DNA of 24,000 nucleotides from Nocardioidaceae bacterium (GTDB taxonomy: Bacteria > Actinomycetota > Actinomycetes > Propionibacteriales > Nocardioidaceae), in assembly GCA_035456965.1 (NCBI GenBank), contig DATICF010000004.1, positions 918 through 24,917 of the forward strand, given 5' to 3'. A model generated the notes under the pieces. That model was given only the letters and a program-made list of their open reading frames with translations. It searched no databases and was not told the DNA's origin. A program made the position numbers and the translations under genes. Shown in pieces: positions 2,030 to 15,455 of this stretch (position 1 is the stretch's first letter; each line of letters opens with the position of its first letter).

Positions 2030-2135
2030 TCGATCCGGGCGTACGCATGAGAGCAACGTCTGCGTAAGTGGGTCGTGCTGGGCGGCCCCAGCAGCGCGAG
2101 GGGGACGGCTCTCGCCCCCTGGATTGGTGGCGGCG

Positions 2136-3194
2136 ATGCCCACAGCGGAAGCAGTCAAGGCCGAAGAGACACTGATCCACGTTCTCTGGATCAATGCCGG
2201 ACTCAGCTGCGACGGCGACTCGGTCGCCCTCACGGCCGCCACACAGCCCAGCATCGAGGAGATCGCACTGGGTGCCCTCCCCGGCCTCCCCAAGATCGCG
2301 GTGCACTGGCCCCTCATCGACTTCGAGTCCGGGCCCACCGGAGGTGCTGACGACTTCCTCGAGTGGTTCTTCAAGGCCGACCGTGGCGAGCTGGAACCCT
2401 TCGTGCTCGTCGTCGAGGGGTCGATCCCCAACGAGAAGCTCAAGGACGAGGGCTACTGGTGCGGGTTCGGCAACAACCCCGACACCGGCCAGCCGATGAC
2501 CACGAGCGAGTGGCTCGACCGGCTTGCGCCCAAGGCGACTGCCATCGTCGCGGCCGGCACGTGTGCGACGTACGGTGGCATCCACGCGATGGCCGGCAAC
2601 CCCACCGGCGCCATGGGCGTCCCCGACTATCTCGGCTGGGACTGGAAGTCCAAGGCGGGCATCCCGATCGTCTGCGTCCCGGGCTGTCCCATCCAGCCGG
2701 ACAACCTGTCCGAGACGCTGACCTACCTGCTCTACATGGCCACCGAGCAGGCACCGATGATCCCGCTCGACGACGCCCTTCGCCCGACCTGGCTGTTCGG
2801 CCAGACGGTCCACGAGGGCTGTGACCGCGCGGGGTACTACGAGCAGGCCGACTTCGCGACCGAGTACGGCTCCCCGAAATGCATCGTCAAGCTCGGCTGC
2901 TGGGGACCGGTCGTGAAGTGCAACGTCCCCAAGCGGGGCTGGATGAACGGCGTGGGCGGCTGTCCGAACGTCGGAGGTATCTGCATCGGCTGCACCATGC
3001 CCGGCTTCCCCGACAAGTTCATGCCCTTCATGGACGAACCTCCCGGCGGAAAGATGTCCACGACCGCTGTCGGTCTCTACGGCACGGCCATCAAGCGCTT
3101 ACGCGGCGTAACCACCCACACCCTCGACAAAGAGCCCAAGTGGCGTACACGGGGGACCAAACTCCTGACCGGAGCCGACCGCACCTGGTCGTGA
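2136..3194 (+). CDS. hhyS: Group 1h [NiFe]-hydrogenase small subunit (no Tat signal peptide)
   Basis: The track ORF starts at TTG 2124; I prefer ATG 2136 (GGTGG 5 nt upstream). FeS ligand motifs: SCDGD, GTCATYGG, PGCPIQP, HEGCD, KLGCWGPVVKCN, GGCPNVGGICIGCTMPGFPD. The N-terminus MPTAEAVKAEETLIHVLW has no RRxF twin-arginine motif. Confidence 0.92.
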   Translation: MPTAEAVKAEETLIHVLWINAGLSCDGDSVALTAATQPSIEEIALGALPGLPKIAVHWPLIDFESGPTGGADDFLEWFFKADRGELEPFVLVVEGSIPNEKLKDEGYWCGFGNNPDTGQPMTTSEWLDRLAPKATAIVAAGTCATYGGIHAMAGNPTGAMGVPDYLGWDWKSKAGIPIVCVPGCPIQPDNLSETLTYLLYMATEQAPMIPLDDALRPTWLFGQTVHEGCDRAGYYEQADFATEYGSPKCIVKLGCWGPVVKCNVPKRGWMNGVGGCPNVGGICIGCTMPGFPDKFMPFMDEPPGGKMSTTAVGLYGTAIKRLRGVTTHTLDKEPKWRTRGTKLLTGADRTWS

Positions 3195-3210: not shown

Positions 3211-5007
3211 GTGATGACGTCGACCATGCCTCGACCCTCCAAGATCGCTGAGGACTCAAAAGGCCTCACCGAGATGGCCTGGGACCCGATCACCCGGATC
3301 GTGGGCAGCCTCGGCATCTACACCAAGATCGACTTCGGAAACATGCAGGTTGCCGAGTGCCACAGCACGAGCTCGATCTTCCGTGGCTACTCGATCTTCA
3401 TGAAGGGCAAGGACCCGCGCGACGCCCACTTCATCACCAGTCGCATCTGCGGCATCTGCGGGGACAACCACGCGACGTGCTCCTGCTACTGCCAGAACAT
3501 GGCCTACGGCGTGAAGCCGCCCCACATCGGCGAGTGGATCGTCAACCTCGGCGAGGCCGCGGAGTACATGTTCGACCACAACATCTACCAGGAGAACCTG
3601 CTCGGCGTTGACTACTGCGAGCGGATGGTCGCGGAGACCAACCCGGGCGTGCTCGAGCAGGCCAACCGCACCGAGGCGCCCAACGCCGAGGCGCACGGCT
3701 ACAAGACGATCGGCGACATCATGCGGTCGCTGAACCCGTTCTCGGGCGAGTTCTACCGCGAGGCGCTGCAGGTCAGCCGCTACACGCGCGAGATGTTCTG
3801 CCTGATGGAGGGACGCCACGTCCACCCGTCCACGCTCTACCCGGGCGGGGTCGGGACCGTCGCGACGATCCAGCTGATGACCGACTACATGAGCCGGTTG
3901 ATGCGCTACGTCGAGTTCATGAAGAAGGTCGTGCCGATGCACGACGACCTCTTCGACTTCTTCTACGAGGCCATGCCCGGCTACGAGGAGGTCGGCCGGC
4001 GCCGGATCCTCCTGGGCTGCTGGGGCTCCTTCCAGGACCCGGAGGTGTGCAACTTCGAGTACCGCGACATGACCGACTGGGGCCGCAAGATGTTCGTCAC
4101 CCCTGGCGTCGTCGTGGACGGCAAGCTCGTCACCAACGACCTGGTCGACATCAACCTCGGCATCCGCATCCTGCTCGGGTCGTCGTACTACGACGACTGG
4201 GAGGACCAGGAGATGTTCGTGCGGCAGGATCCGCTCGGCAACCCGGTCGACCGCCGGCACCCCTGGAACCAGCACACGAACCCGCACCCCCAGAAGCGCG
4301 ACCTGGACGACAAGTACTCCTGGGTCATGTCGCCACGCTGGTACGACGGCACCGACCACCTGGCCCTGGACACCGGCGGCGGACCGATCGCACGACTCTG
4401 GTCGACGGCGCTGTCCGGCCTGGTCGACGTCGGCTACGTGAAGGCGACCGGCCACAGCGTGCAGATCAACCTGCCGAAGACCGCGCTGAAGGGGCCGGTG
4501 AGCTTCGAGTGGAAGATCCCGCAGTGGTCGAACACGATCGAGCGTGGCCGCGCCCGGACCTACTTCCAGGCCTACGCGGCTGCGTGCGCCCTCCACTTCG
4601 CCGAGCAGGCACTCGCCGAGATCAGGGCCGGACGGACGAAGACCTGGGAGAAGTTCGACGTCCCGGAGGAGGGCATCGGCTGCGGCTTCACCGAGGCCGT
4701 CCGCGGCGTGCTGAGCCACCACATGGTGATCCGCGACGGGAAGATCGCCAACTACCACCCCTACCCGCCGACGCCGTGGAACGCGAACCCGCGCGACTCC
4801 TTCGGGACGCCTGGCCCCTACGAGGACGCGGTCCAGGGGCAGCCGATCTTCGAGGAGAACGACCGCGACAACTTCAAGGGCATCGACATCATGCGCACGG
4901 TGCGCAGCTTCGATCCCTGTCTGCCGTGCGGGGTGCACATGTACCTCGGCAACGGCAAGGAGCTCGAGGTCATGCACACCCCGACCCAGTCGGCCGGCAG
5001 CGAGTAG
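3211..5007 (+). CDS. hhyL: Group 1h (group 5) [NiFe]-hydrogenase large subunit
   Basis: 598-aa ORF starting at GTG 3211 or ATG 3214, with GAGAGG upstream. L1 motif TSRICGICGDNH (3436-3471) and L2 motif SFDPCLPCGVH (4906-4938) match the signatures I recall for group 5/1h enzymes. A 22-aa extension (MYLGNGKELEVMHTPTQSAGSE) follows the C-terminal His, consistent with protease processing. Confidence 0.95.
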   Translation: MMTSTMPRPSKIAEDSKGLTEMAWDPITRIVGSLGIYTKIDFGNMQVAECHSTSSIFRGYSIFMKGKDPRDAHFITSRICGICGDNHATCSCYCQNMAYGVKPPHIGEWIVNLGEAAEYMFDHNIYQENLLGVDYCERMVAETNPGVLEQANRTEAPNAEAHGYKTIGDIMRSLNPFSGEFYREALQVSRYTREMFCLMEGRHVHPSTLYPGGVGTVATIQLMTDYMSRLMRYVEFMKKVVPMHDDLFDFFYEAMPGYEEVGRRRILLGCWGSFQDPEVCNFEYRDMTDWGRKMFVTPGVVVDGKLVTNDLVDINLGIRILLGSSYYDDWEDQEMFVRQDPLGNPVDRRHPWNQHTNPHPQKRDLDDKYSWVMSPRWYDGTDHLALDTGGGPIARLWSTALSGLVDVGYVKATGHSVQINLPKTALKGPVSFEWKIPQWSNTIERGRARTYFQAYAAACALHFAEQALAEIRAGRTKTWEKFDVPEEGIGCGFTEAVRGVLSHHMVIRDGKIANYHPYPPTPWNANPRDSFGTPGPYEDAVQGQPIFEENDRDNFKGIDIMRTVRSFDPCLPCGVHMYLGNGKELEVMHTPTQSAGSE

Positions 5008-5016
5008 CGGCAGGAC

Positions 5017-5952
5017 ATGGCAGGCACGCCGCAGGCAGGAGCGAGCCCCGAGGCCGGGCCGCCGGACCTGCGCGCGGTCGGCGACCGCATCGACGCCCTG
5101 CTGGACGCGAGTGCGTCGGGCGGGGTCGTCGCGCGTGAACGGTCCGAGGAGCTCGTGCGGCTGGTCGCCGACCTGTACGGCGCCGGAATCGAACGCATCC
5201 TCGAGATCCTCCACGACGCGGGGCGCCTCGACGAGGACGTGCTCGCGCAGCTCGCCGACGACGACCTGGTGGCCAGCATCCTGATCGTGCATGGCCTGCA
5301 CCCCTACGGCGTCGAGCAGCGGGTCGAGGACGCCCTGGAGAAGGTGCGTCCCTACCTCGGCTCCCACGGCGGTGACGTGGAGCTGCTCGAGGTCACCAAC
5401 CGGGGCGTCGTCCGGCTGCGGCTGCTCGGAAGCTGTGACGGCTGCCCGTCCTCGTCGGTCACCCTCAACCTCGCCGTGGAGGGCGCCATCGAGGCTGCCG
5501 CCCCGGAGGTCACGACGATCGAGGTCGAGACCCGCGGCGAGGAGCCGAGGTCTCCTCTGATCCCGGCCGAGTCCCTCATGTCCCACCTGCGCGAGAAGGA
5601 CCCGGGAGGTTCGTGGGAGGCCGTGCCTGAACTCTCGCTCCTGAACCCAGGCGGGGTGGTCGCGGCGGAGGTCCAGCAGACCTCCGTCATGGGCTGTCGC
5701 GTCGGCGACGACCTGTACGCCTTCTCGAGCCGGTGCCCGCGCTGCGAGTCGGACCTGGCCTCGGCAAGGCTGGCTCGAAGGCTCGGCGGCGACCGCCACG
5801 ACGCGCTGCTGACCTGTCCCTCGTGCCAGGCCCACTTCGACGTACGACGTGCCGGCGCGTGTCTCGACGACCCCGAGCTCCACCTCGACCCGCTGCCCCT
5901 GCTCAGCAACGACGGTGTCGTGTCCGTGGCGGTGCCGAGGCCGGTGGCGTGA
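5017..5952 (+). CDS. hhyE: NifU-like / Rieske-like putative iron-sulfur protein of the hydrogenase locus (HhyE-type)
   Basis: 311 aa. The central NifU C-terminal-type domain reads VRPYLGSHGGDVELLEV...LLGSCDGCPSSSVTL. The C-terminal Rieske-fold-like region has CPRC (5734-5745) and CPSC (5815-5826) where Rieske proteins have CxH...CxxH. Its position directly after the large subunit matches the HucE/HhyE proteins described in Mycobacterium smegmatis (recollection). Confidence 0.75.
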   Translation: MAGTPQAGASPEAGPPDLRAVGDRIDALLDASASGGVVARERSEELVRLVADLYGAGIERILEILHDAGRLDEDVLAQLADDDLVASILIVHGLHPYGVEQRVEDALEKVRPYLGSHGGDVELLEVTNRGVVRLRLLGSCDGCPSSSVTLNLAVEGAIEAAAPEVTTIEVETRGEEPRSPLIPAESLMSHLREKDPGGSWEAVPELSLLNPGGVVAAEVQQTSVMGCRVGDDLYAFSSRCPRCESDLASARLARRLGGDRHDALLTCPSCQAHFDVRRAGACLDDPELHLDPLPLLSNDGVVSVAVPRPVA

Positions 5953-6581
5953 TGACCACCGGGCCGCTGTCCTCCCTGCGTCGGATCACCTCGACGCGGC
6001 CCCCTCCGGTGACCGGCGAGCGCTGCGACATGTGCGCGGAGCCGATCGCCGACGAGCACTCCCACGTGGTGGACCTCGAGAGCAGGGCCTTGATGTGCAC
6101 CTGCCGCGGCTGCTACCTGCTGTTCACCGACCAGCAGGCCCAGCTGCGCTACCGGGCGGTGCCGGACCGCTACCTCTCCTTCCCCGGCTTCACCACGGGG
6201 GCGCAGGAGTGGGAGAACCTGCAGATCCCGGTGGGGCTGGCTTTCCTCTTCCGCAACTCCGTACAGGGGAGAACGGTCGCGTTCTACCCCAGCCCGGCCG
6301 GAGCCACCGAGTCCGAGCTCCCGCTCGAGGCGTGGGACCGGATCCTCGAGGCCGACCCGGAGCTCGGGGTGCTCCTGCCCGACGTCGAGGCGCTGCTCAT
6401 CCGCAGCGACGACGGCGCGCTGCGGTGCAACCTGGTGCCCATCGACGCGTGCTACGAGCTCGTCGGCCGGCTCCGCGTGCTGTGGCGCGGCTTCGACGGC
6501 GGTCGCGAGGCGCACGACGCGATGGACGCCTTCTTCGCCAAGGTCGACGCTCGCAGCAAGGTCGTGGAGCGCGGGTCATGA
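5952..6581 (+). CDS. Conserved hydrogenase-cluster protein of unknown function with an N-terminal Cys cluster (DUF5947-like, from memory)
   Basis: Track ORF 5733..6581 trimmed to ATG 5952, which overlaps the hhyE stop by 1 nt. 209 aa. CDMC (6024-6035) and CTCRGC (6096-6113) form a CxxC-x20-CxCxxC putative metal site. Codon bias is good. Confidence 0.7.
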   Translation: MTTGPLSSLRRITSTRPPPVTGERCDMCAEPIADEHSHVVDLESRALMCTCRGCYLLFTDQQAQLRYRAVPDRYLSFPGFTTGAQEWENLQIPVGLAFLFRNSVQGRTVAFYPSPAGATESELPLEAWDRILEADPELGVLLPDVEALLIRSDDGALRCNLVPIDACYELVGRLRVLWRGFDGGREAHDAMDAFFAKVDARSKVVERGS

Positions 6582-7264
6582 GCAGCTACAGGTTCACCGT
6601 GCTCGACGTCTTCGCCGAGCCCTACGCCGCCGCCCCCCAGCTCACGGCGCGGCTGCGGGTCGAGGAGTCGACGGGGCAGGCCGTGCATGCCGTGGCATTG
6701 CGGTGTCAGGTCCGTATCGAGCCGCAGCGACGGGGCTACGACAGCGACGAGGCGGCAGGCCTGGCCTCGATCTTCGGGGATCGCTCACGCTGGGCGCAGA
6801 CGCTCAAGCCGTTCTTGTGGATGCAGTCCAACACCACCGTCCAGGGGTTCACCGGCGTCACCGAGGTCGACCTTGCCCTGCCCTGCACCTACGACTTCGA
6901 CGTGACGGCGTCGCGCTACCTGCACTCCCTCGGCGAGGGGACGGTGCCGGTGAGCTTCCTGTTCTCCGGAACGGTGTTCACGCGGGGCACGACCGGGTTC
7001 GGAGTGGAGCAGGTGCCGTGGGACTGCGACGCGACCTACCGGCTCCCGGTGGCTGTGTGGCACCAGATGATGGAGAACTACTTCCCGGGCACCGGCTGGA
7101 TCCGCCTGGACCGTGAGGTGCTGGACAGGTTGGCCGAGCACCGGACGGCCCACGGGTTCACGACCTGGGAGGAGACGATCTCCCACCTGCTGTCCACGCG
7201 GTCCGAGCCGGGCCGCCCGCTGACACAGGCGGCCTCTCCCGACAACGTCGGAGGTGGCGCATGA
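6578..7264 (+). CDS. Conserved hydrogenase-cluster protein of unknown function (DUF6084-like, from memory)
   Basis: Track ORF 5849..7264 trimmed to ATG 6578 (ATGA stop/start overlap with the upstream gene). The 228-aa product MSSYRFTVLDVFAEPYAAAPQL has a non-repetitive, globular composition, whereas the 5' extension is Arg/Pro/Gly junk. Confidence 0.7.
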   Translation: MSSYRFTVLDVFAEPYAAAPQLTARLRVEESTGQAVHAVALRCQVRIEPQRRGYDSDEAAGLASIFGDRSRWAQTLKPFLWMQSNTTVQGFTGVTEVDLALPCTYDFDVTASRYLHSLGEGTVPVSFLFSGTVFTRGTTGFGVEQVPWDCDATYRLPVAVWHQMMENYFPGTGWIRLDREVLDRLAEHRTAHGFTTWEETISHLLSTRSEPGRPLTQAASPDNVGGGA

Positions 7265-8739
7265 GCCTGGACCAGGTACGCGCCGTCGCCGACGCAGTGC
7301 TCTACGAGGGCTACCTCCTCTACCCCTACCGCGCCACCGCTCGCAAGAACCAGGCGCGCTGGCAGTTCGGTGTGCTCGGGCCTCCCGGGGCTGCGGAACG
7401 AGGTGCGGGCGAGGAGCCGGAGATGGCCGTCCAGTGCCTGCTCGCAGCGGCCGGCGACTCGGACAACCCGGCGGGCTACTCGCTGCGGATCCACGTGCGC
7501 TTCCTGCAGCTCCAGGTCCGCACCGTGGAGAGGTACGACGACCGGGGCGAGCGTTTCGTGCCGGTGGACGTCCTCACGGCCGGCGGCGAGCAGTGGCTGT
7601 CGTGGGACGAGGCCGTGGAGCAGGAAGTCGTCCTCGACTGCTCCGCCGACGACCTGCGGGAGGGGGTCTCCCACGACAGCGTCGTCGAGGGGCACGAGGA
7701 GGTCGAGGAGATCCCGTCGGCCGGGGGCCGGATCGTCCGGCGGCGCTGGCCGATGCAGGCCCGGGTGACCGCGACCGCGACGCAGGACGGTGAACTCGTC
7801 AGGCTCGAGGTGCGGGTCGCGAACGTCTCAGGGGAACGCCCAACGGATCCGGACTCCGGCTCCCCTGAGGCAGCGATCCGCACCTCGCTCATCGGCACCC
7901 ACCTGATCCTGGTCGCCGAAGGCGCGCGCTTCCTCTCGGTCGTCGACCCGCCGTTGCCTGCGGCGGCCGCCTCCAGGCGATGCACCCAGCACCGCTGCTG
8001 GCCCGTGCTGGCGGGGCCTCGACCCGAGACGAGCGGGTCGGCCGAGGAGGGAGACCAGGAGCGGGCAAGCAGTGCAGTCGTGCTCGCGTCGCCGATCATC
8101 CTCTACGACTTCCCCGAGGTCGCCGAAGAGAGCGCCGGTGCGCTCTTCGACGCCACGGAGATCGACGAGATCCTCACGCTGCGGGTCATGACGATGACCG
8201 ATGAGGAGAAGGCCGAGGCGCGAGCAACCGACCCGCGGGCCCGCGAGATCATCGACCGCTGCGACAACCTGCCGGCTTCGGCGCTGCAGGAGCTGCACGG
8301 AATCTGGCGCAACCCCCACGCCGACCCGAGCGCCGACCCGCACGGCGCACGCGACGTCCGCGAGGTGGAGCCGCCCACCTTCGGCGAACCGGAGGTGCCC
8401 TGGTGGGACCCGGCTGCGGACGAAGCGGTGCGTCCCGAGCTCGACGTCGTGACCATCGACGGCGTACCGGTGTCCAAGGGCAGCCTGGTGCGCGTGCATC
8501 CTTCCCGGCGCGCCGACGCCCAGGACCTGTTCTTCGCCGACCAGGTGGCGCGGGTCACCGCGGTGCTCTCCGACGTCGACGGCGGGGTGCACGTCGCCCT
8601 CGTACTGGCCGACGACCCGGGCGCCGACCTGCACGACTGGTACGGCCGCTACTGGTACTTCGCCCCGGACGAGCTGGAACCCCTGACCGGCCACGACGCG
8701 GAGCCGACATCACCCGAGCACCGGTCGAGCAGCCACTGA
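7261..8739 (+). CDS. Conserved hydrogenase-cluster protein of unknown function, 492 aa
   Basis: ATG 7261 in an ATGA overlap with the upstream gene, GGAGG 6 nt upstream. Clean ORF with strong GC3 bias. I recognise no catalytic motif. The C-terminal ~90 aa (VVTIDGVPVSKGSLVRVHP...VHVALVL...WYGRYWYFAPDELE) looks like a small beta-barrel. Confidence 0.7.
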   Translation: MSLDQVRAVADAVLYEGYLLYPYRATARKNQARWQFGVLGPPGAAERGAGEEPEMAVQCLLAAAGDSDNPAGYSLRIHVRFLQLQVRTVERYDDRGERFVPVDVLTAGGEQWLSWDEAVEQEVVLDCSADDLREGVSHDSVVEGHEEVEEIPSAGGRIVRRRWPMQARVTATATQDGELVRLEVRVANVSGERPTDPDSGSPEAAIRTSLIGTHLILVAEGARFLSVVDPPLPAAAASRRCTQHRCWPVLAGPRPETSGSAEEGDQERASSAVVLASPIILYDFPEVAEESAGALFDATEIDEILTLRVMTMTDEEKAEARATDPRAREIIDRCDNLPASALQELHGIWRNPHADPSADPHGARDVREVEPPTFGEPEVPWWDPAADEAVRPELDVVTIDGVPVSKGSLVRVHPSRRADAQDLFFADQVARVTAVLSDVDGGVHVALVLADDPGADLHDWYGRYWYFAPDELEPLTGHDAEPTSPEHRSSSH

Positions 8740-8764: not shown

Positions 8765-8884
8765 GTGAGGAAAGTCGGAAAGGTGACCACGTTCGTGGTC
8801 CTCGCCGCCGTCTGCGCGGCCGCTGTCGTCGGCGTCCGGTCGATCCCGGACATCAAGCGGTACCGCCACATGCGGCAGATGTGA
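8765..8884 (+). CDS. 39-aa single-pass membrane micro-protein in the hydrogenase locus
   Basis: Below the track's size cut-off. GTG 8765 has GAGGAG 8 nt upstream. Product: VRKVGKVTTFVVLAAVCAAAVVGVRSIPDIKRYRHMRQM, one hydrophobic helix followed by a basic tail. It fills the only sizeable gap in the operon. It resembles ~40-aa actinobacterial small proteins (DUF6893-like, from memory, unverified). Confidence 0.5.
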   Translation: MRKVGKVTTFVVLAAVCAAAVVGVRSIPDIKRYRHMRQM

Positions 8885-8912: not shown

Positions 8913-11837
8913 GTGACTCAGGGCCGGAGCAGGTCGAACCCACGGGTCCTGGTGGCGGGGGTCGGCAACCTCTTCCTGAGCGACGACGGCTTCGGGTCCG
9001 AGGTCGCTCGGAGGCTGCTGGCCGAAGGCGACCTGCCCGGGAACGCGCTCGTCGTCGACTACGGGATCCGGGGGATGCACCTGGCGTACGACCTGCTGGA
9101 CGGCTACGACGGCCTGGTCATCCTCGACGCCGTTCCCGGGGAGGGTGTGCCCGGCGACGTCAGTGTGCTGGAGGTGGGCCGGGACGATCTCGGCTCGGGG
9201 GAGCTCGACGCCCATGGCATGAACCCCGTCGCCGTGCTCGCGAACCTCGAGCGGCTCGGGGGCACCCTGCCGCCGACGTACGTCGTGGGGTGTCGCCCCG
9301 CCACCGTCGAGGACGGCATCGGCCTGTCCCCGGCGGTCGAGGCGGCTGTGCCGGTAGCGGTCGAAACCGTGAGGCGGCTGCTCGGCAACCATCTCTCCGG
9401 CGACCACGCCCCTGCCGCGTCGATACCGGACGGGTCGGCGGCGGTCGGGTCGGCGGACGTTACGAGGCCGGCCGACCACACCGACGGCACGAGCCGCATC
9501 CGACGCAGGTACGAGATCTCCGGGGTGGTGCAGGGCGTGGGCTTCCGGCCCTTCGTCTACGTCACCGCCTCCGAGCTCGCGCTCACCGGCTCGGTCGCCA
9601 ACGACGTGGCAGGGGTGGTGGTCGAGGTCGAGGGCGAGCCCGGGGCGGTAGCTGAGCTCGGCCGGCGTCTGGCCGACGACGCGCCGCCGCTGTCGGTGGT
9701 GGAGAGCATCCACGAGACCGAGCTCGAGCCTCTGGGGGGCACCGGGTTCACCATCGAGGAGTCCACCGGCACGGGAGACAAACGCACCCTCGCCTCCCCC
9801 GACGTGTCGCTGTGCTCGGACTGCCTGCGAGAGATGTGCGACCCGGAGAACCGGCGGTACCGACATCCATTCATCACCTGCACGAACTGCGGCCCCCGCT
9901 TCACGATCATCACGGACCTGCCCTACGACCGGGCGACCACGACGATGGCCGCCTTCGAGATGTGCCCCGCGTGCCGTCGGGAGTACGACGACCCTGCCGA
10001 CCGTCGCTTCCACGCGCAGCCCATCGCCTGTCCAGACTGCGGTCCGCGCCTGGAACTGGTGACGAAGGACGCCACCGCACCCCTCGTGGACGGGGACGCG
10101 CTCGCCGCCGCGCGCGTGCGCCTGGCCAACGGAGGGATCATCGCGGTCAAGGGCCTCGGGGGCTACCACCTGGCCTGTGATGCCGGCAACGAGAAGGCAG
10201 TGGCCGAGCTGCGACGGCGCAAGCAGCGCGGCGACAAGCCGTTCGCGGTGATGGTGCGCGACCTCGAGACCGCGCACCGGATCGTCGACCTCGCCCCGGA
10301 GGAGGGGCAGTTGCTGGGTGGTGTCCGAAGGCCGATCATGCTCACCGGGCGCGTCGCCGCGGACGGCGCGGACGAGGGTCTCGTCGCCCCGTCGGTGGCC
10401 CCGGGCAACCCCGACCTCGGTGTCCTGCTCCCCTACACCCCCCTGCACGTCCTGCTGTTCGGACTCCCTGGCGACGAACCCGGTCCGCCCGTGCTCGTGA
10501 TGACCTCCGGCAACCTGTCGGGAGAGCCGATCGTCACCGACGACGCGGAGGCACGGACACGACTCAATCCTCTCGTCGACGCGTGGCTGATGCACGACCG
10601 GCCCATCCACGTGCCCTGCGACGACTCCGTCGCGCGGGTCGTCGCCGGCGCCGAGCTGCCGATTCGCAGATCGCGCGGCTACGCCCCATTGCCGATCGCG
10701 CTTCCCTTCGAGGTCGACCCGACCCTTGCCGTGGGCGCTGACCTGAAGAACACCTGCGCTCTCGCGAGCGGCCGGTACGCCTGGGTCAGCCAGCACATCG
10801 GCGACATGGACGACCTCGCCACCCTCGACGCGTTCTCCGCGACCGAGCAACACCTCGAGCGCCTGACCGGTGTGGCGCCCGGGCTGCTCGTCTCGGACCA
10901 GCACCCCGGCTACCGGTCCACCGCCTGGGCCACCTCCCATGCACAGGGTCGCCCCGTCCGAACCGTGCAGCACCACCACGCCCACGTCGCCTCGGTCATG
11001 GGCGAGCACGGCCTCGGCCACGACGAGCCGGTGATCGGCTTCGCCTTCGACGGCACGGGGTTCGGCACCGACCAGGCGGTGTGGGGCGGCGAGGTCCTCG
11101 TCGCCGACTACAAGGGATTCCGCCGCGCGGCCCACCTCGCCTACGTCGCGCTCGCCGGCGGCGACACCAGCGTGCACCGGCCTTACCGGATGGCGCTCTC
11201 GCACCTGCGCACCGCGGGGCTCGACTGGGACGACGACATCCCCGCTGTTGCCGTCTGCCCGGCCGCGGAGCGCCGCGTGCTCGCCCACCAGCTCGAGACC
11301 GGCTTCGGCTGCGTCCCGACCTCGAGCATGGGACGGCTCTTCGACGCCGTCGCCTCTCTGGCCGGGGTGCGGCATGTCGTGGACTACGAGGCCGAGGCAG
11401 CCATGGAGTTCGAGGGCCTGGCCCGCTCTGCGCGCCCGCTGGCGGACGGCGGATCGCCGCGCCGCTCCCCCGGCACGCCCTACGCCTTCGCCGTCACCCC
11501 TGGTACGACGGACGGGCGACCCGCCACAGCGGAGGCCGGCCCCCTCATCCGGGCCGTCGTCGACGACGTCCGGGCAGGCGTGCCGGCGAGCACGATCTCG
11601 GCGCGCTTCCACCACGCCGTCACCCGGCTGATCGTCGACCTCGCCGATCTGGCCCGCACCGAGACGGGGCTGACTACCGTCGTACTCAGTGGTGGTGTGT
11701 TCCAGAACGCGTTGCTGCTCCACGCATCCTCCGACGCGCTGAGTGAGCGCGGCTTCACAGTCCTGCGGCCCAGACTCCTGCCGCCCAACGACGGCGGCAT
11801 CGCCCTCGGTCAGATTTTGGTCGGCGCGTCCGGCTGA
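8913..11837 (+). CDS. hypF: In-frame fusion of hydrogenase maturation endopeptidase (HupD/HybD family) with carbamoyltransferase HypF
   Basis: 974-aa ORF from GTG 8913. Residues 1-160 are the endopeptidase: VLVAGVGNLFLSDDGFG, ILDAV, DAHG (the Asp/Asp/His metal triad). A ~33-aa linker (9393-9491) has no stop and no in-frame ATG/GTG/TTG. HypF follows: acylphosphatase ISGVVQGVGFRPFVY; zinc fingers CSDC...CTNCGPRF and CPAC...CPDCGPR; YrdC-like KGLGGYHLACDA; C-terminal PNDGGIALGQ. Confidence 0.88.
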   Translation: MTQGRSRSNPRVLVAGVGNLFLSDDGFGSEVARRLLAEGDLPGNALVVDYGIRGMHLAYDLLDGYDGLVILDAVPGEGVPGDVSVLEVGRDDLGSGELDAHGMNPVAVLANLERLGGTLPPTYVVGCRPATVEDGIGLSPAVEAAVPVAVETVRRLLGNHLSGDHAPAASIPDGSAAVGSADVTRPADHTDGTSRIRRRYEISGVVQGVGFRPFVYVTASELALTGSVANDVAGVVVEVEGEPGAVAELGRRLADDAPPLSVVESIHETELEPLGGTGFTIEESTGTGDKRTLASPDVSLCSDCLREMCDPENRRYRHPFITCTNCGPRFTIITDLPYDRATTTMAAFEMCPACRREYDDPADRRFHAQPIACPDCGPRLELVTKDATAPLVDGDALAAARVRLANGGIIAVKGLGGYHLACDAGNEKAVAELRRRKQRGDKPFAVMVRDLETAHRIVDLAPEEGQLLGGVRRPIMLTGRVAADGADEGLVAPSVAPGNPDLGVLLPYTPLHVLLFGLPGDEPGPPVLVMTSGNLSGEPIVTDDAEARTRLNPLVDAWLMHDRPIHVPCDDSVARVVAGAELPIRRSRGYAPLPIALPFEVDPTLAVGADLKNTCALASGRYAWVSQHIGDMDDLATLDAFSATEQHLERLTGVAPGLLVSDQHPGYRSTAWATSHAQGRPVRTVQHHHAHVASVMGEHGLGHDEPVIGFAFDGTGFGTDQAVWGGEVLVADYKGFRRAAHLAYVALAGGDTSVHRPYRMALSHLRTAGLDWDDDIPAVAVCPAAERRVLAHQLETGFGCVPTSSMGRLFDAVASLAGVRHVVDYEAEAAMEFEGLARSARPLADGGSPRRSPGTPYAFAVTPGTTDGRPATAEAGPLIRAVVDDVRAGVPASTISARFHHAVTRLIVDLADLARTETGLTTVVLSGGVFQNALLLHASSDALSERGFTVLRPRLLPPNDGGIALGQILVGASG

Positions 11838-14395: not shown

Positions 14396-14644
14396 ATGTG
14401 CCTCGGCATCCCGGGTCAGGTGGTGCAGATCCTCGACGAGCACGACGGCCAGCTCGCGCTCGTCGACGTACAGGGAGCGCGGCGGAAGGTGAACCTCGGG
14501 ATCCTCGACGCACCGCCGACCAGCGGCGACTGGATCCTGATCCACATGGGCTTCGCCATGGAGGTCATCGACCTGCCCCGCGCCGAGCAGGCGCTCTCCG
14601 GACTGGAGACGATGGGGCGCTCCCGGGAGGCGGCCGATGGCTGA
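14396..14644 (+). CDS. hypC: HypC-family hydrogenase assembly chaperone (copy 2)
   Basis: ATG 14396 with AAGGAAGGAG upstream. MCLGIPGQVV N-terminus, GDWILIHMGFAM motif, 82 aa. Confidence 0.9.
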   Translation: MCLGIPGQVVQILDEHDGQLALVDVQGARRKVNLGILDAPPTSGDWILIHMGFAMEVIDLPRAEQALSGLETMGRSREAADG

Positions 14645-15455
14645 GCGACAAGCCCACGCTGCGGGTGCTCCCCGACCGGCCACGCTGGACGCGGCCCCCG
14701 GCCCGCTGCTGTTCGCGCGCTACGCGTTCCCCCCGAACTCCCACGGCTACTGCGGCCCCGGCGACCACGAGGCGTTCTTCGCCTACGGGGTCTCCGGGAT
14801 CGACGACGGGCTGCGTGCGCTTGCGCGGCAGTTCGAGGGCGCCTGGCCCTACCTCGAGCTGATCGCGGCCTCGACCGCGATCGACGACCCGCTGGACCGT
14901 CGCGTCGTCGAGGCCTACTGGGTGGGCAGCCCGCGACTCGAGCTCGTGGGCACTCGCGCCGTCGGTGACTCCGTCGACGAGCGGTTCCGGAAGATGGCCG
15001 GGGCCTCCTTCGCCACCTTGACCCAGAGCGTCCTGGCCGGCGGGGTCCCCCACCACAGCTTCGCGGTGTTCTGCATCTACCCGTGGACCGGGCTGCTCCA
15101 GTCGGGTCGCGGCGGCGAGCACGCCTTGCACGTGCTCGATCGTTGCCGGATCCGGTGGGGCAAGGTCCTCGCCGTCCAGGGCGACCAGGTCGTCGTGGAG
15201 AGCCAGCCGCTGACCTGGGACGGTCGCCGGCTCGGTCTCGGCGAGACATGCACCGAGACGGTCGTCCGTTCTGTCGACGGGGTCGGCATGGTCACCGACC
15301 TGCATGAAGGCGACCTGGTCTCGCTGCACTGGGAGTGGGTCTGCGACCGCCTCACGGCTCGGCAGGTGCGACTGCTGAAGGAGTACACGCAGCGACACCT
15401 GCGGATCGTCAACGAGGACCTCCATCCTGGACCGGCTCGCCTGCTCGACGGCTGA
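14637..15455 (+). CDS. Conserved hydrogenase-cluster protein of unknown function (DUF6390-like, from memory) with a HypC-like C-terminal region
   Basis: ATG 14637 overlaps the hypC2 stop by 8 nt, with GGGAGG upstream. 272 aa. C-terminal DRCRIRWGKVLAVQGDQVVVES...GDLVSLHWEWVCDRLTARQ parallels HypC's MCLGIPGQVVQI...GDWILIHMGFAMEVIDLPRAEQ (alignment by eye). Confidence 0.7.
   Translation: MAERQAHAAGAPRPATLDAAPGPLLFARYAFPPNSHGYCGPGDHEAFFAYGVSGIDDGLRALARQFEGAWPYLELIAASTAIDDPLDRRVVEAYWVGSPRLELVGTRAVGDSVDERFRKMAGASFATLTQSVLAGGVPHHSFAVFCIYPWTGLLQSGRGGEHALHVLDRCRIRWGKVLAVQGDQVVVESQPLTWDGRRLGLGETCTETVVRSVDGVGMVTDLHEGDLVSLHWEWVCDRLTARQVRLLKEYTQRHLRIVNEDLHPGPARLLDG

Follow-up and report, generated by a model that had tools for sequence, protein, structure and literature searches.

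Group 1h [NiFe]-hydrogenases (Hhy) are a main biological sink for atmospheric H2 and sustain dormant soil bacteria. Almost every Hhy locus carries, as its obvious unexplained parts, three genes whose products the literature treats as conserved hypothetical proteins peculiar to group 1h (PMC4377017, PMC5900883, PMC6776052). Their counterparts are PHG067, PHG068 and PHG069 on plasmid pHG1 of Cupriavidus necator (R. eutropha) H16, where PHG066-69 were listed as four open reading frames (ORFs) of unknown function in the actinobacterial hydrogenase (AH) cluster (PMC4377017); MSMEG_2717, MSMEG_2716 and MSMEG_2715 in Mycobacterium smegmatis; and the genes termed hhaABC in Thermomicrobium roseum (PMC6776052). 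The Cordero 2019 preprint supplement holds no data on MSMEG_2715-2717. Here we analyse the trio, called ORF1, ORF2 and ORF3 and matched to these tags by gene order, in a 24,000-nucleotide (nt) stretch from a Nocardioidaceae bacterium (assembly GCA_035456965.1, contig DATICF010000004.1, positions 918 to 24,917 of the forward strand; hereafter the window). An earlier note, made from the letters of the window, had singled out the three genes as having no assigned function, which agrees with the literature (PMC4377017, PMC5900883, PMC6883350), and had left maturation, oligomerisation and electron transfer as candidate roles.

As an observation the trio is already known: it is a set of conserved, uncharacterised companions of the atmospheric-H2 hydrogenase, and the window supplies one more member. 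Gene order and overlapping junctions are those of pHG1, M. smegmatis and T. roseum, nothing essential differs in the window, and amino acid identity is 36-43% for pHG1 and 49-64% for Mycobacterium. The novelty of our comparison lies in fusions and rearrangements of the trio's genes. No new kind of element comes with the window itself; the pairings we found (ORF3 with the endopeptidase, ORF1 with HhyE, ORF2 with ORF3, and ORF2 losable) sharpen the question of the trio's role, make it more directly testable and bear on how Hhy matures in air and how it hands its electrons to the respiratory chain. The three proteins are most likely soluble accessory factors of 'HhaABC' type that have no catalytic activity and serve group 1h [NiFe]-hydrogenases only. 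We tentatively read them, together with HhyE and the HupD endopeptidase, as a group-1h-specific assembly or maturation module that works in air, and would put this reading a little short of an even chance.

The O2-tolerant group 1d enzymes offer a parallel. Their accessory proteins (HoxL/O/Q/R/T/V, HupF/G/H/I/J/K) are likewise hydrogenase-specific and encoded between structural and hyp genes, and work by Fritsch in 2014, as cited in PMC6883350, is said to have found such factors necessary for maturation in air. Among them the rubredoxin HoxR/HupI, a small Cys-rich module, is a precedent for ORF1. The trio nonetheless has no Pfam or NCBIfam match to the HupH, HybE, HyaE, HypC or rubredoxin families, and group 1h enzymes lack the twin-arginine translocation (Tat) signal that is the target of HoxO and HoxQ in group 1d.

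The hydrogenase genes, the trio and the protease are arranged in the window as follows, with lengths in amino acids (aa) and structural features taken from a model scored by the predicted local distance difference test (pLDDT):

2124-3194, + strand: hhyS
3211-5007, + strand: hhyL
5017-5952, + strand: hhyE, NifU plus Rieske_2-like (Pfam NifU E 2.6e-22, Rieske_2 E 4.3e-07)
5952-6581, + strand: ORF1, 209 aa, DUF5947 (PF19372, E 6.4e-76)
6024-6113, + strand: ORF1 candidate metal-ligand cluster (alignments A2, A6)
6578-7264, + strand: ORF2, 228 aa, DUF6084 (PF19562, E 1.9e-94; alignment A3)
7261-8739, + strand: ORF3, 492 aa, predicted multi-domain scaffold, in no Pfam, NCBIfam or PHROGs family
7420-8100, + strand: ORF3 beta-rich core, residues ~54-280 (model pLDDT mostly >90)
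8083-8265, + strand: ORF3 most conserved stretch, residues ~275-335 (alignments A1, A8, A9)
8449-8682, + strand: ORF3 C-terminal SH3-like beta-barrel, residues ~397-474 (model strands, Foldseek)
8913-11837, + strand: HupD/HycI-type endopeptidase in frame with hypF, 974 aa (Pfam HycI and HypF domains; NCBIfam hypF E 1e-217)

A first line of evidence for an assembly role comes from gene fusions. The ORF3 family comprises 4,394 cluster representatives at E<=1e-3, and 7 of the 150 representatives listed are fused to a HycI protease. Several of these fusions recur in different members and contigs, and by sequence identity the fused proteins are no closer to one another than to unfused members, so the fusion probably arose more than once. 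DUF6084 is fused to ORF3 on two independent contigs, and in the same lineage a Cys-less, degenerate NifU-like HhyE is fused to DUF5947. Rearranged loci keep similar company: in 7 metagenomic loci the intact set ORF1-ORF2-ORF3-protease precedes hhyS-hhyL, with hhyE elsewhere; in one lineage a hypA-hypB-X-DUF5947-ORF3-HycI-DUF6893 operon lies on the strand opposite to a hypC-hypD-hypE-hhyS-hhyL operon; and the S. cattleyicolor plasmid pSCAT (locus L004, 200-12546) reads HycI-hypB-ORF3-hemerythrin-hhyS-hhyL-short hhyE-DUF5947, with no DUF6084. Together, fusions and rearrangements therefore define three stable pairings, in which the protease goes with ORF3, HhyE with ORF1, and ORF2 with ORF3; the protease is also the most constant 3' neighbour of ORF3, and ORF1 adjoins HhyE in nearly every locus examined.

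The HupD/HycI endopeptidase is known for one task only: it cuts the nickel-loaded large-subunit precursor a single time. Its recurrent fusion to ORF3 is hard to square with a permanent electron-transfer subunit, and the comparison across loci suggests that the trio helps to assemble the enzyme rather than to carry its electrons; among the roles left open by the earlier note, the fusions favour maturation or assembly. Two other explanations have to be measured against these data. In the first, the trio is the missing acceptor module of Hhy, an electron relay or membrane tether, which we regard as unlikely though well worth weighing: the repeated joining of ORF3 to a maturation protease with a single known cleavage role speaks against it, as do the finding of the block with hypA-hypB or moving with the protease and the dispensability of DUF6084 in three lineages. 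In the second, which seems to us quite improbable, the trio acts after assembly: it would keep the finished enzyme stable, oligomerise it, shield it from O2 or repair it, or would control its activity in dormancy. The hemerythrin gene that adjoins ORF3 on pSCAT would suit such a function, as would the strict association with an enzyme that must last long in air, but the protease fusions point to a step before cleavage.

Two of the rearranged loci have further features. On pSCAT a gene for cytochrome oxidase subunit I lies just downstream. Another locus (L087, 1-8092) passes directly from DUF5947 to an ORF3-HycI fusion, with no DUF6084; farther 3' it holds a hydrogenase small-subunit-like gene and then a PAS histidine kinase/response-regulator gene.

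The trio's genes are tightly linked in the window. The hhyE stop TGA (5950-5952) and the ORF1 ATG at 5952 share 1 nt (TGATG), ORF1 and ORF2 overlap by the 4 nt of ATGA (ORF2 ATG at 6578), and ORF2 and ORF3 meet in another ATGA overlap (ORF3 ATG at 7261). Shine-Dalgarno-like GGAG/GGAGG sequences stand ~8-13 nt 5' of the ORF2 and ORF3 starts, with a weaker GGTGG 5' of ORF1. The sizes of 209, 228 and 492 aa and the 1-nt and ATGA links to hhyE and to each other, as first described, are exact in the sequence. ORF length alone is no proof of a gene here, because a window of ~70% G+C yields long antisense ORFs by chance (387, 288, 875 and 1161 aa overlap the same region). Independent gene calls have, however, produced database proteins that are 100% identical and exactly 209, 228 and 492 aa long, and the DUF5947 and DUF6084 matches, along with homologues numbering in the thousands for each of the three, show that the overlapping ORFs are genuine genes. 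The trio is presumably made in fixed ratio, because the reading frames overlap.

To place the trio among group 1h loci we used a genome scan centred on HhyL, which returned 80 actinobacterial loci (78 with enough downstream DNA), and a second scan, of metagenomes and anchored on ORF3, whose loci were ranked by how closely they resemble the PHG069 of Proteobacteria and counted where the flank sufficed. All three genes stand in the same order in 78/78 of the genomic loci with enough flank, and the metagenomic loci contain DUF6084 in 62/62, DUF5947 in 53/53, HhyL in 30/30 and the downstream protease in 56/56 cases. The arrangement hhyL/hhyE-trio-endopeptidase is shared by the window, those 78 loci and most metagenomic loci, and the order hhyS-hhyL-(NifU-like)-DUF5947-DUF6084-ORF3-protease recurs on pHG1 (C. 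necator H16), a Mycobacterium intracellulare plasmid and a Methylocystis parvus plasmid. Across 82-84 loci the HhyE/ORF1 overlap is 4 nt in 61 and 1 nt in 12, the ORF1/ORF2 overlap 4 nt in 69 and 1 nt in 5, and the ORF2/ORF3 overlap 4 nt in 71 and 1 nt in 3, so that stop-start overlaps are kept in ~85-90% of loci. By tblastn, identity to pHG1 is 43% for ORF1, 39% for ORF2, 36% for ORF3, 40% for the protease and 43% for HypF, against 77% for HhyL and 68% for HhyS; identity to the M. intracellulare plasmid is 64%, 50% and 49% for ORF1, ORF2 and ORF3, and on both plasmids the matches of the three ORFs cover 87-103% of length. That the trio diverges like the protease and HypF, and not like HhyL and HhyS, is a further reason for reading it as an assembly module.

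These comparisons bear on several statements of the earlier note. Because the trio is present in all of the genomic and metagenomic loci with enough flank, it is not absent from most other group 1h loci, the outcome that the note had set against its own proposal when it suggested checking co-occurrence with hhyL. Gene order and tblastn homology bear out that group 1h loci elsewhere have equivalents, the AH cluster of pHG1 among them; the description of these equivalents as known only from domains of unknown function (DUFs) suits ORF1 and ORF2 but not ORF3, which is in no DUF or Pfam family. Tight coupling to the hydrogenase stands, but 'obligatory' co-expression is too strong, because the block can lie upstream of hhyS or on the other strand with hypA-hypB and because the trio does not extend to every organism that encodes a group 1h enzyme: three lineages lack DUF6084, and homologues of the trio are reportedly missing from M. 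fumariolicum SolV (PMC7174314). Gene position also counts for an electron relay and against an assembly module, since other group 1 operons have cytochrome b at the place of the block and no acceptor of Hhy is known; in T. roseum, moreover, hhaABC is on the structural operon and is induced 5.5-fold.

We took a full-length match above the gathering score as Pfam membership, and ORF1 matches PF19372 with 254 bits (cut-off 25; profile positions 1-176 of 177) and ORF2 matches PF19562 with 316 bits (cut-off 25; positions 1-210 of 213). In ORF1 a Cys/His-rich module at the N-terminus is joined to a conserved C-terminal domain. Its cysteines follow C-x2-C-x20-C-x-C-x2-C from C25 (6024-6026) to C54 (6111-6113), so the CxxC-x20-CxCxxC cluster reported earlier at 6024-6113 was correctly placed, and the alignments show it to be suited to a metal site. 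The ligand set is larger than was first seen, as the invariant H36, H38 and C167 had been overlooked: the full cluster reads C25-x2-C28-x7-H36-x-H38-x10-C49-x-C51-x2-C54, with C167 (6450-6452) in addition, and C25, C28, H36, H38, C49, C51, C54 and C167 are all invariant from Actinomycetota to Alpha- and Betaproteobacteria. Eight such residues would be enough for two four-ligand metal sites, and zinc cannot be separated from iron or nickel at the putative site by sequence alone.

Six cysteines and two histidines that are invariant across phyla could also form a redox centre, which would weigh against assembly and for a relay, in which an iron-sulfur (FeS) or other redox centre in ORF1 would take electrons from the distal HhyS cluster while ORF2 and ORF3 would see to menaquinone access and to docking of the enzyme at the membrane or respiratory chain. 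To our knowledge, the spacing CxxC-x7-HxH-x10-CxCxxC is none of the classical FeS signatures. No Pfam or NCBIfam match links ORF1, ORF2 or ORF3 to the ferredoxin, Rieske, NifU/Nfu or rubredoxin families, and the ORF1 profile search of the PDB returned a TFIIIA zinc finger as its sole match (E 0.96); the lack of any known FeS signature or family speaks against the relay. ORF1 is nevertheless the member already drawn into this debate, as MSMEG_2717 was noted to resemble PHG067, 'the proposed electron acceptor' (PMC6883350).

For ORF3, one homologue is labelled 'Uncharacterized protein MSMEG_2715' by its source, and Pfam searches of the protein and its pieces at E up to 10 returned T2SSI, Phage_TAC_7, DUF2625 and OB_POT1A, which we discarded as chance matches. 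The AlphaFold2 model (mean pLDDT 74) runs from an N-terminal helix through a confident beta-rich core with long strands (54-280) and a helical acidic region to a C-terminal SH3-like barrel. The core has no Foldseek match at E<=1e-3 in PDB or BFVD; weak beta-sheet matches of the model to glycoprotein B, aerolysin, TNF, arrestin and an injectisome protein were rejected for poor root mean square deviation (RMSD) and probability. C241 and C246 were likewise rejected as a metal site, C246 not being kept in distant members. The acidic stretch at residues ~275-335 (SPIILYDxPxVAxxSxGxLFDxTEIDEILTLRVMTxTxxEKxEARATDP) has invariant columns in all three alignments and is modelled as flexible or helical with low to medium pLDDT. 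The most conserved motifs of the protein (N-terminal YPYR...KNxxRWxFG; SPIILYDxP...EIDEILTLR; PWWDP) all fall in low-confidence regions, as is expected of partner-binding segments, and residues ~275-335 are likely, on the model, to be a partner-binding motif.

The small beta-barrel with which ORF3 was said to end is present in the AlphaFold2 model (pLDDT ~66-87) and is matched by Foldseek to PetP, the SH3-fold subunit of the cyanobacterial cytochrome b6f complex, on which the last ~75 residues of ORF3 superpose (7r0w_V, target-normalised TM-score (TMt) 0.75; 2n5u, TMt 0.65; probability 1.00). A tail resembling a subunit that docks on a membrane complex would suit a relay or tether, but the likeness is at the level of fold only (18-26% identity over ~73 columns), small viral SH3-like domains match the tail too, and no function can safely be drawn from it because SH3-like barrels are very common. 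The model makes ORF3 a scaffold that combines a beta core with invariant linear motifs and an SH3-like domain.

ORF2 shows no metal or ligand motif in its alignment. Its structure was seen in a predicted model of the natural DUF6084-ORF3 fusion, in which it is predicted to form an immunoglobulin (Ig)-like beta-sandwich followed by helices. By Foldseek this model matches the Kir cytoplasmic domain, ApaG (DUF525; 1xq4) and a GH3 domain (~165 columns, E ~5e-4; probability 0.99-1.0 for ApaG and Kir), and we infer that DUF6084, not the ORF3 core, is the region matched, because the ApaG and Kir matches are absent from the search with ORF3 only. With identity of only 10-18% and an RMSD of 5-9 A, the likeness to ApaG and Kir is a generic one, of sandwiches of the E-set or Ig-like kind. 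Folds of this sort, a beta-sandwich and an SH3-like module that serve interaction and not catalysis, would also suit a role after assembly.

Searches of the three proteins against Pfam, NCBIfam, PHROGs and PDB sequences gave no catalytic or cofactor family or motif beyond the DUF families, in line with the earlier statement that they hold no known catalytic motif. PDB sequence and profile searches returned nothing below E 0.1; there was no match to the HypA-F, HupD/HycI or HupF/G/H/I/J/K families; and profile-profile comparison of the DUF5947, DUF6084 and ORF3 families indicated no shared ancestry (probability <1%). No helix-turn-helix (HTH), kinase or nucleotide-binding regulatory domain was found in Pfam or NCBIfam, which speaks against control of the finished enzyme, and the absence of any transmembrane segment or quinone-binding family in ORF1-3 speaks against a relay. 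Taken with motifs in low-confidence regions, typical of proteins that bind partners, the absence of catalytic or cofactor families and of transmembrane segments supports the assembly reading. The only solved group 1h enzyme, 5AA5, is the sole PDB entry matching HhyL, and no PDB chain resembles ORF1, ORF2 or ORF3, so the trio is not part of any solved complex; this again supports assembly, and it tells against a relay and, since no such partner appears in the structure of the R. eutropha enzyme, against a role on the finished enzyme.

HhyE and HucE, NifU-like putative iron-sulfur proteins of Hhy and Huc, have no sequence relationship to ORF1-3, although HhyE lies directly 5' of ORF1, is translationally coupled to it and, in one lineage, forms a fusion with DUF5947. 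We compared HhyE between the window (5017-5952) and other loci (L001 8327-8905; L003 8443-8967; L086, L088 and L091). It consists of a NifU-like domain and a Rieske_2-like C-terminal domain with two CxxC motifs. The NifU CxxC and the Rieske-like domain are present in the window and in Mycobacterium and absent from PHG066 (pHG1), Methylocystis and several metagenomic lineages. The label 'iron-sulfur protein' is therefore not general for HhyE. In contrast to the eight Cys/His residues of DUF5947, which do not vary, its supposed FeS motif is not kept across lineages. In M. smegmatis, HhyE is needed for Hhy activity, and its loss is not compensated by the artificial acceptor nitroblue tetrazolium (NBT), and the same study grants that HhyE may act in assembly or as a scaffold (PMC6883350); the failure of NBT to rescue is among our reasons for favouring assembly.

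In the mechanism we favour, then, ORF3, aided by ORF2, would hold the HhyL and/or HhyS precursor and position the protease after nickel insertion; ORF1 and HhyE would act on behalf of the small subunit, either in handling metal or clusters or in docking; and the accessory factors would leave once the HhyS2L2 enzyme had formed. This assembly module is supported by the ORF3-HycI, DUF6084-ORF3 and HhyE-DUF5947 fusions and by a block that moves with the protease or sits with hypA-hypB or hypB.

Other observations count against it. The 1h enzyme of M. fumariolicum SolV is active and of high affinity although the trio genes are missing (PMC7174314), so the trio is not universally needed for 1h maturation. 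A swappable electron-transfer partner would suit this pattern no less well; the SolV operon encodes other membrane proteins (PMC7174314), a further point for the relay. HypA, HypB, HypC, HypD, HypE, HypF and HycI are all separately encoded in the window by Pfam and NCBIfam, and with a full HypABCDEF set and protease no known maturation step is obviously vacant. The relay or tether keeps its modest share of probability because SolV is active without the trio, the Hyp set is complete and the ORF1 ligands are possibly redox-active. In one version it would possibly be helped by HhyE, DUF6893 and, in some lineages, YceI. Its most ambitious form, in which the trio, HhyE and DUF6893 are the physiological Hhy-to-menaquinone electron module, DUF5947 bears an undescribed Cys6His2 centre and the ORF3 core is a new fold, strikes us as somewhat less probable still. 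SolV also lends something to the post-assembly explanation, as the isolated enzyme loses affinity and stability off the membrane (PMC7174314).

The remaining genes of the cluster in the window are these:

546-1109, + strand: hypA
986-1957, + strand: hypB (ORF as listed)
8765-8884, + strand: DUF6893 mini-gene, 39 aa, one hydrophobic helix (PF21833, E 3e-14)
downstream of hypF, + strand: hypC, hypD and hypE
14637-15455, + strand: DUF6390 gene, directly 3' of hypE (E 1e-94)

The DUF6893 mini-gene has its own strong Shine-Dalgarno sequence and follows ORF3 or HycI in distant lineages; its peptide could be a membrane anchor. In Acidimicrobiia-like 1h loci a YceI-family gene lies directly 3' of DUF6893 (L085 4361-4873; L088 11764-12279; L090 12044-12565), with a second PadR-YceI gene nearby in L090. 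As YceI is a polyisoprenoid/quinone-binding family, this neighbour may bear on quinone access, and a single-transmembrane peptide and an isoprenoid-binding family travelling with the block are points for a relay.

The protease and HypF share one frame in the window, with no stop between them (974 aa), and are separate ORFs in the two nearest relatives (L005 and L006); the in-frame HycI-HypF may be a true fusion or else the product of an indel in the assembly of this metagenome-assembled genome. The listed hypB ORF overlaps hypA by ~120 nt, and its true start is probably ATG 1112, just past the hypA stop at 1109, which gives the canonical MCATCGC N-terminus; HypB also has a long His-rich stretch. 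DUF6390 is another uncharacterised family within the hydrogenase cluster. Between hypC and hypD, several distant group 1h loci carry a conserved gene of 74-76 aa with no Pfam match (L088 12938-13162; L090 13258-13488; L091 12959-13189).

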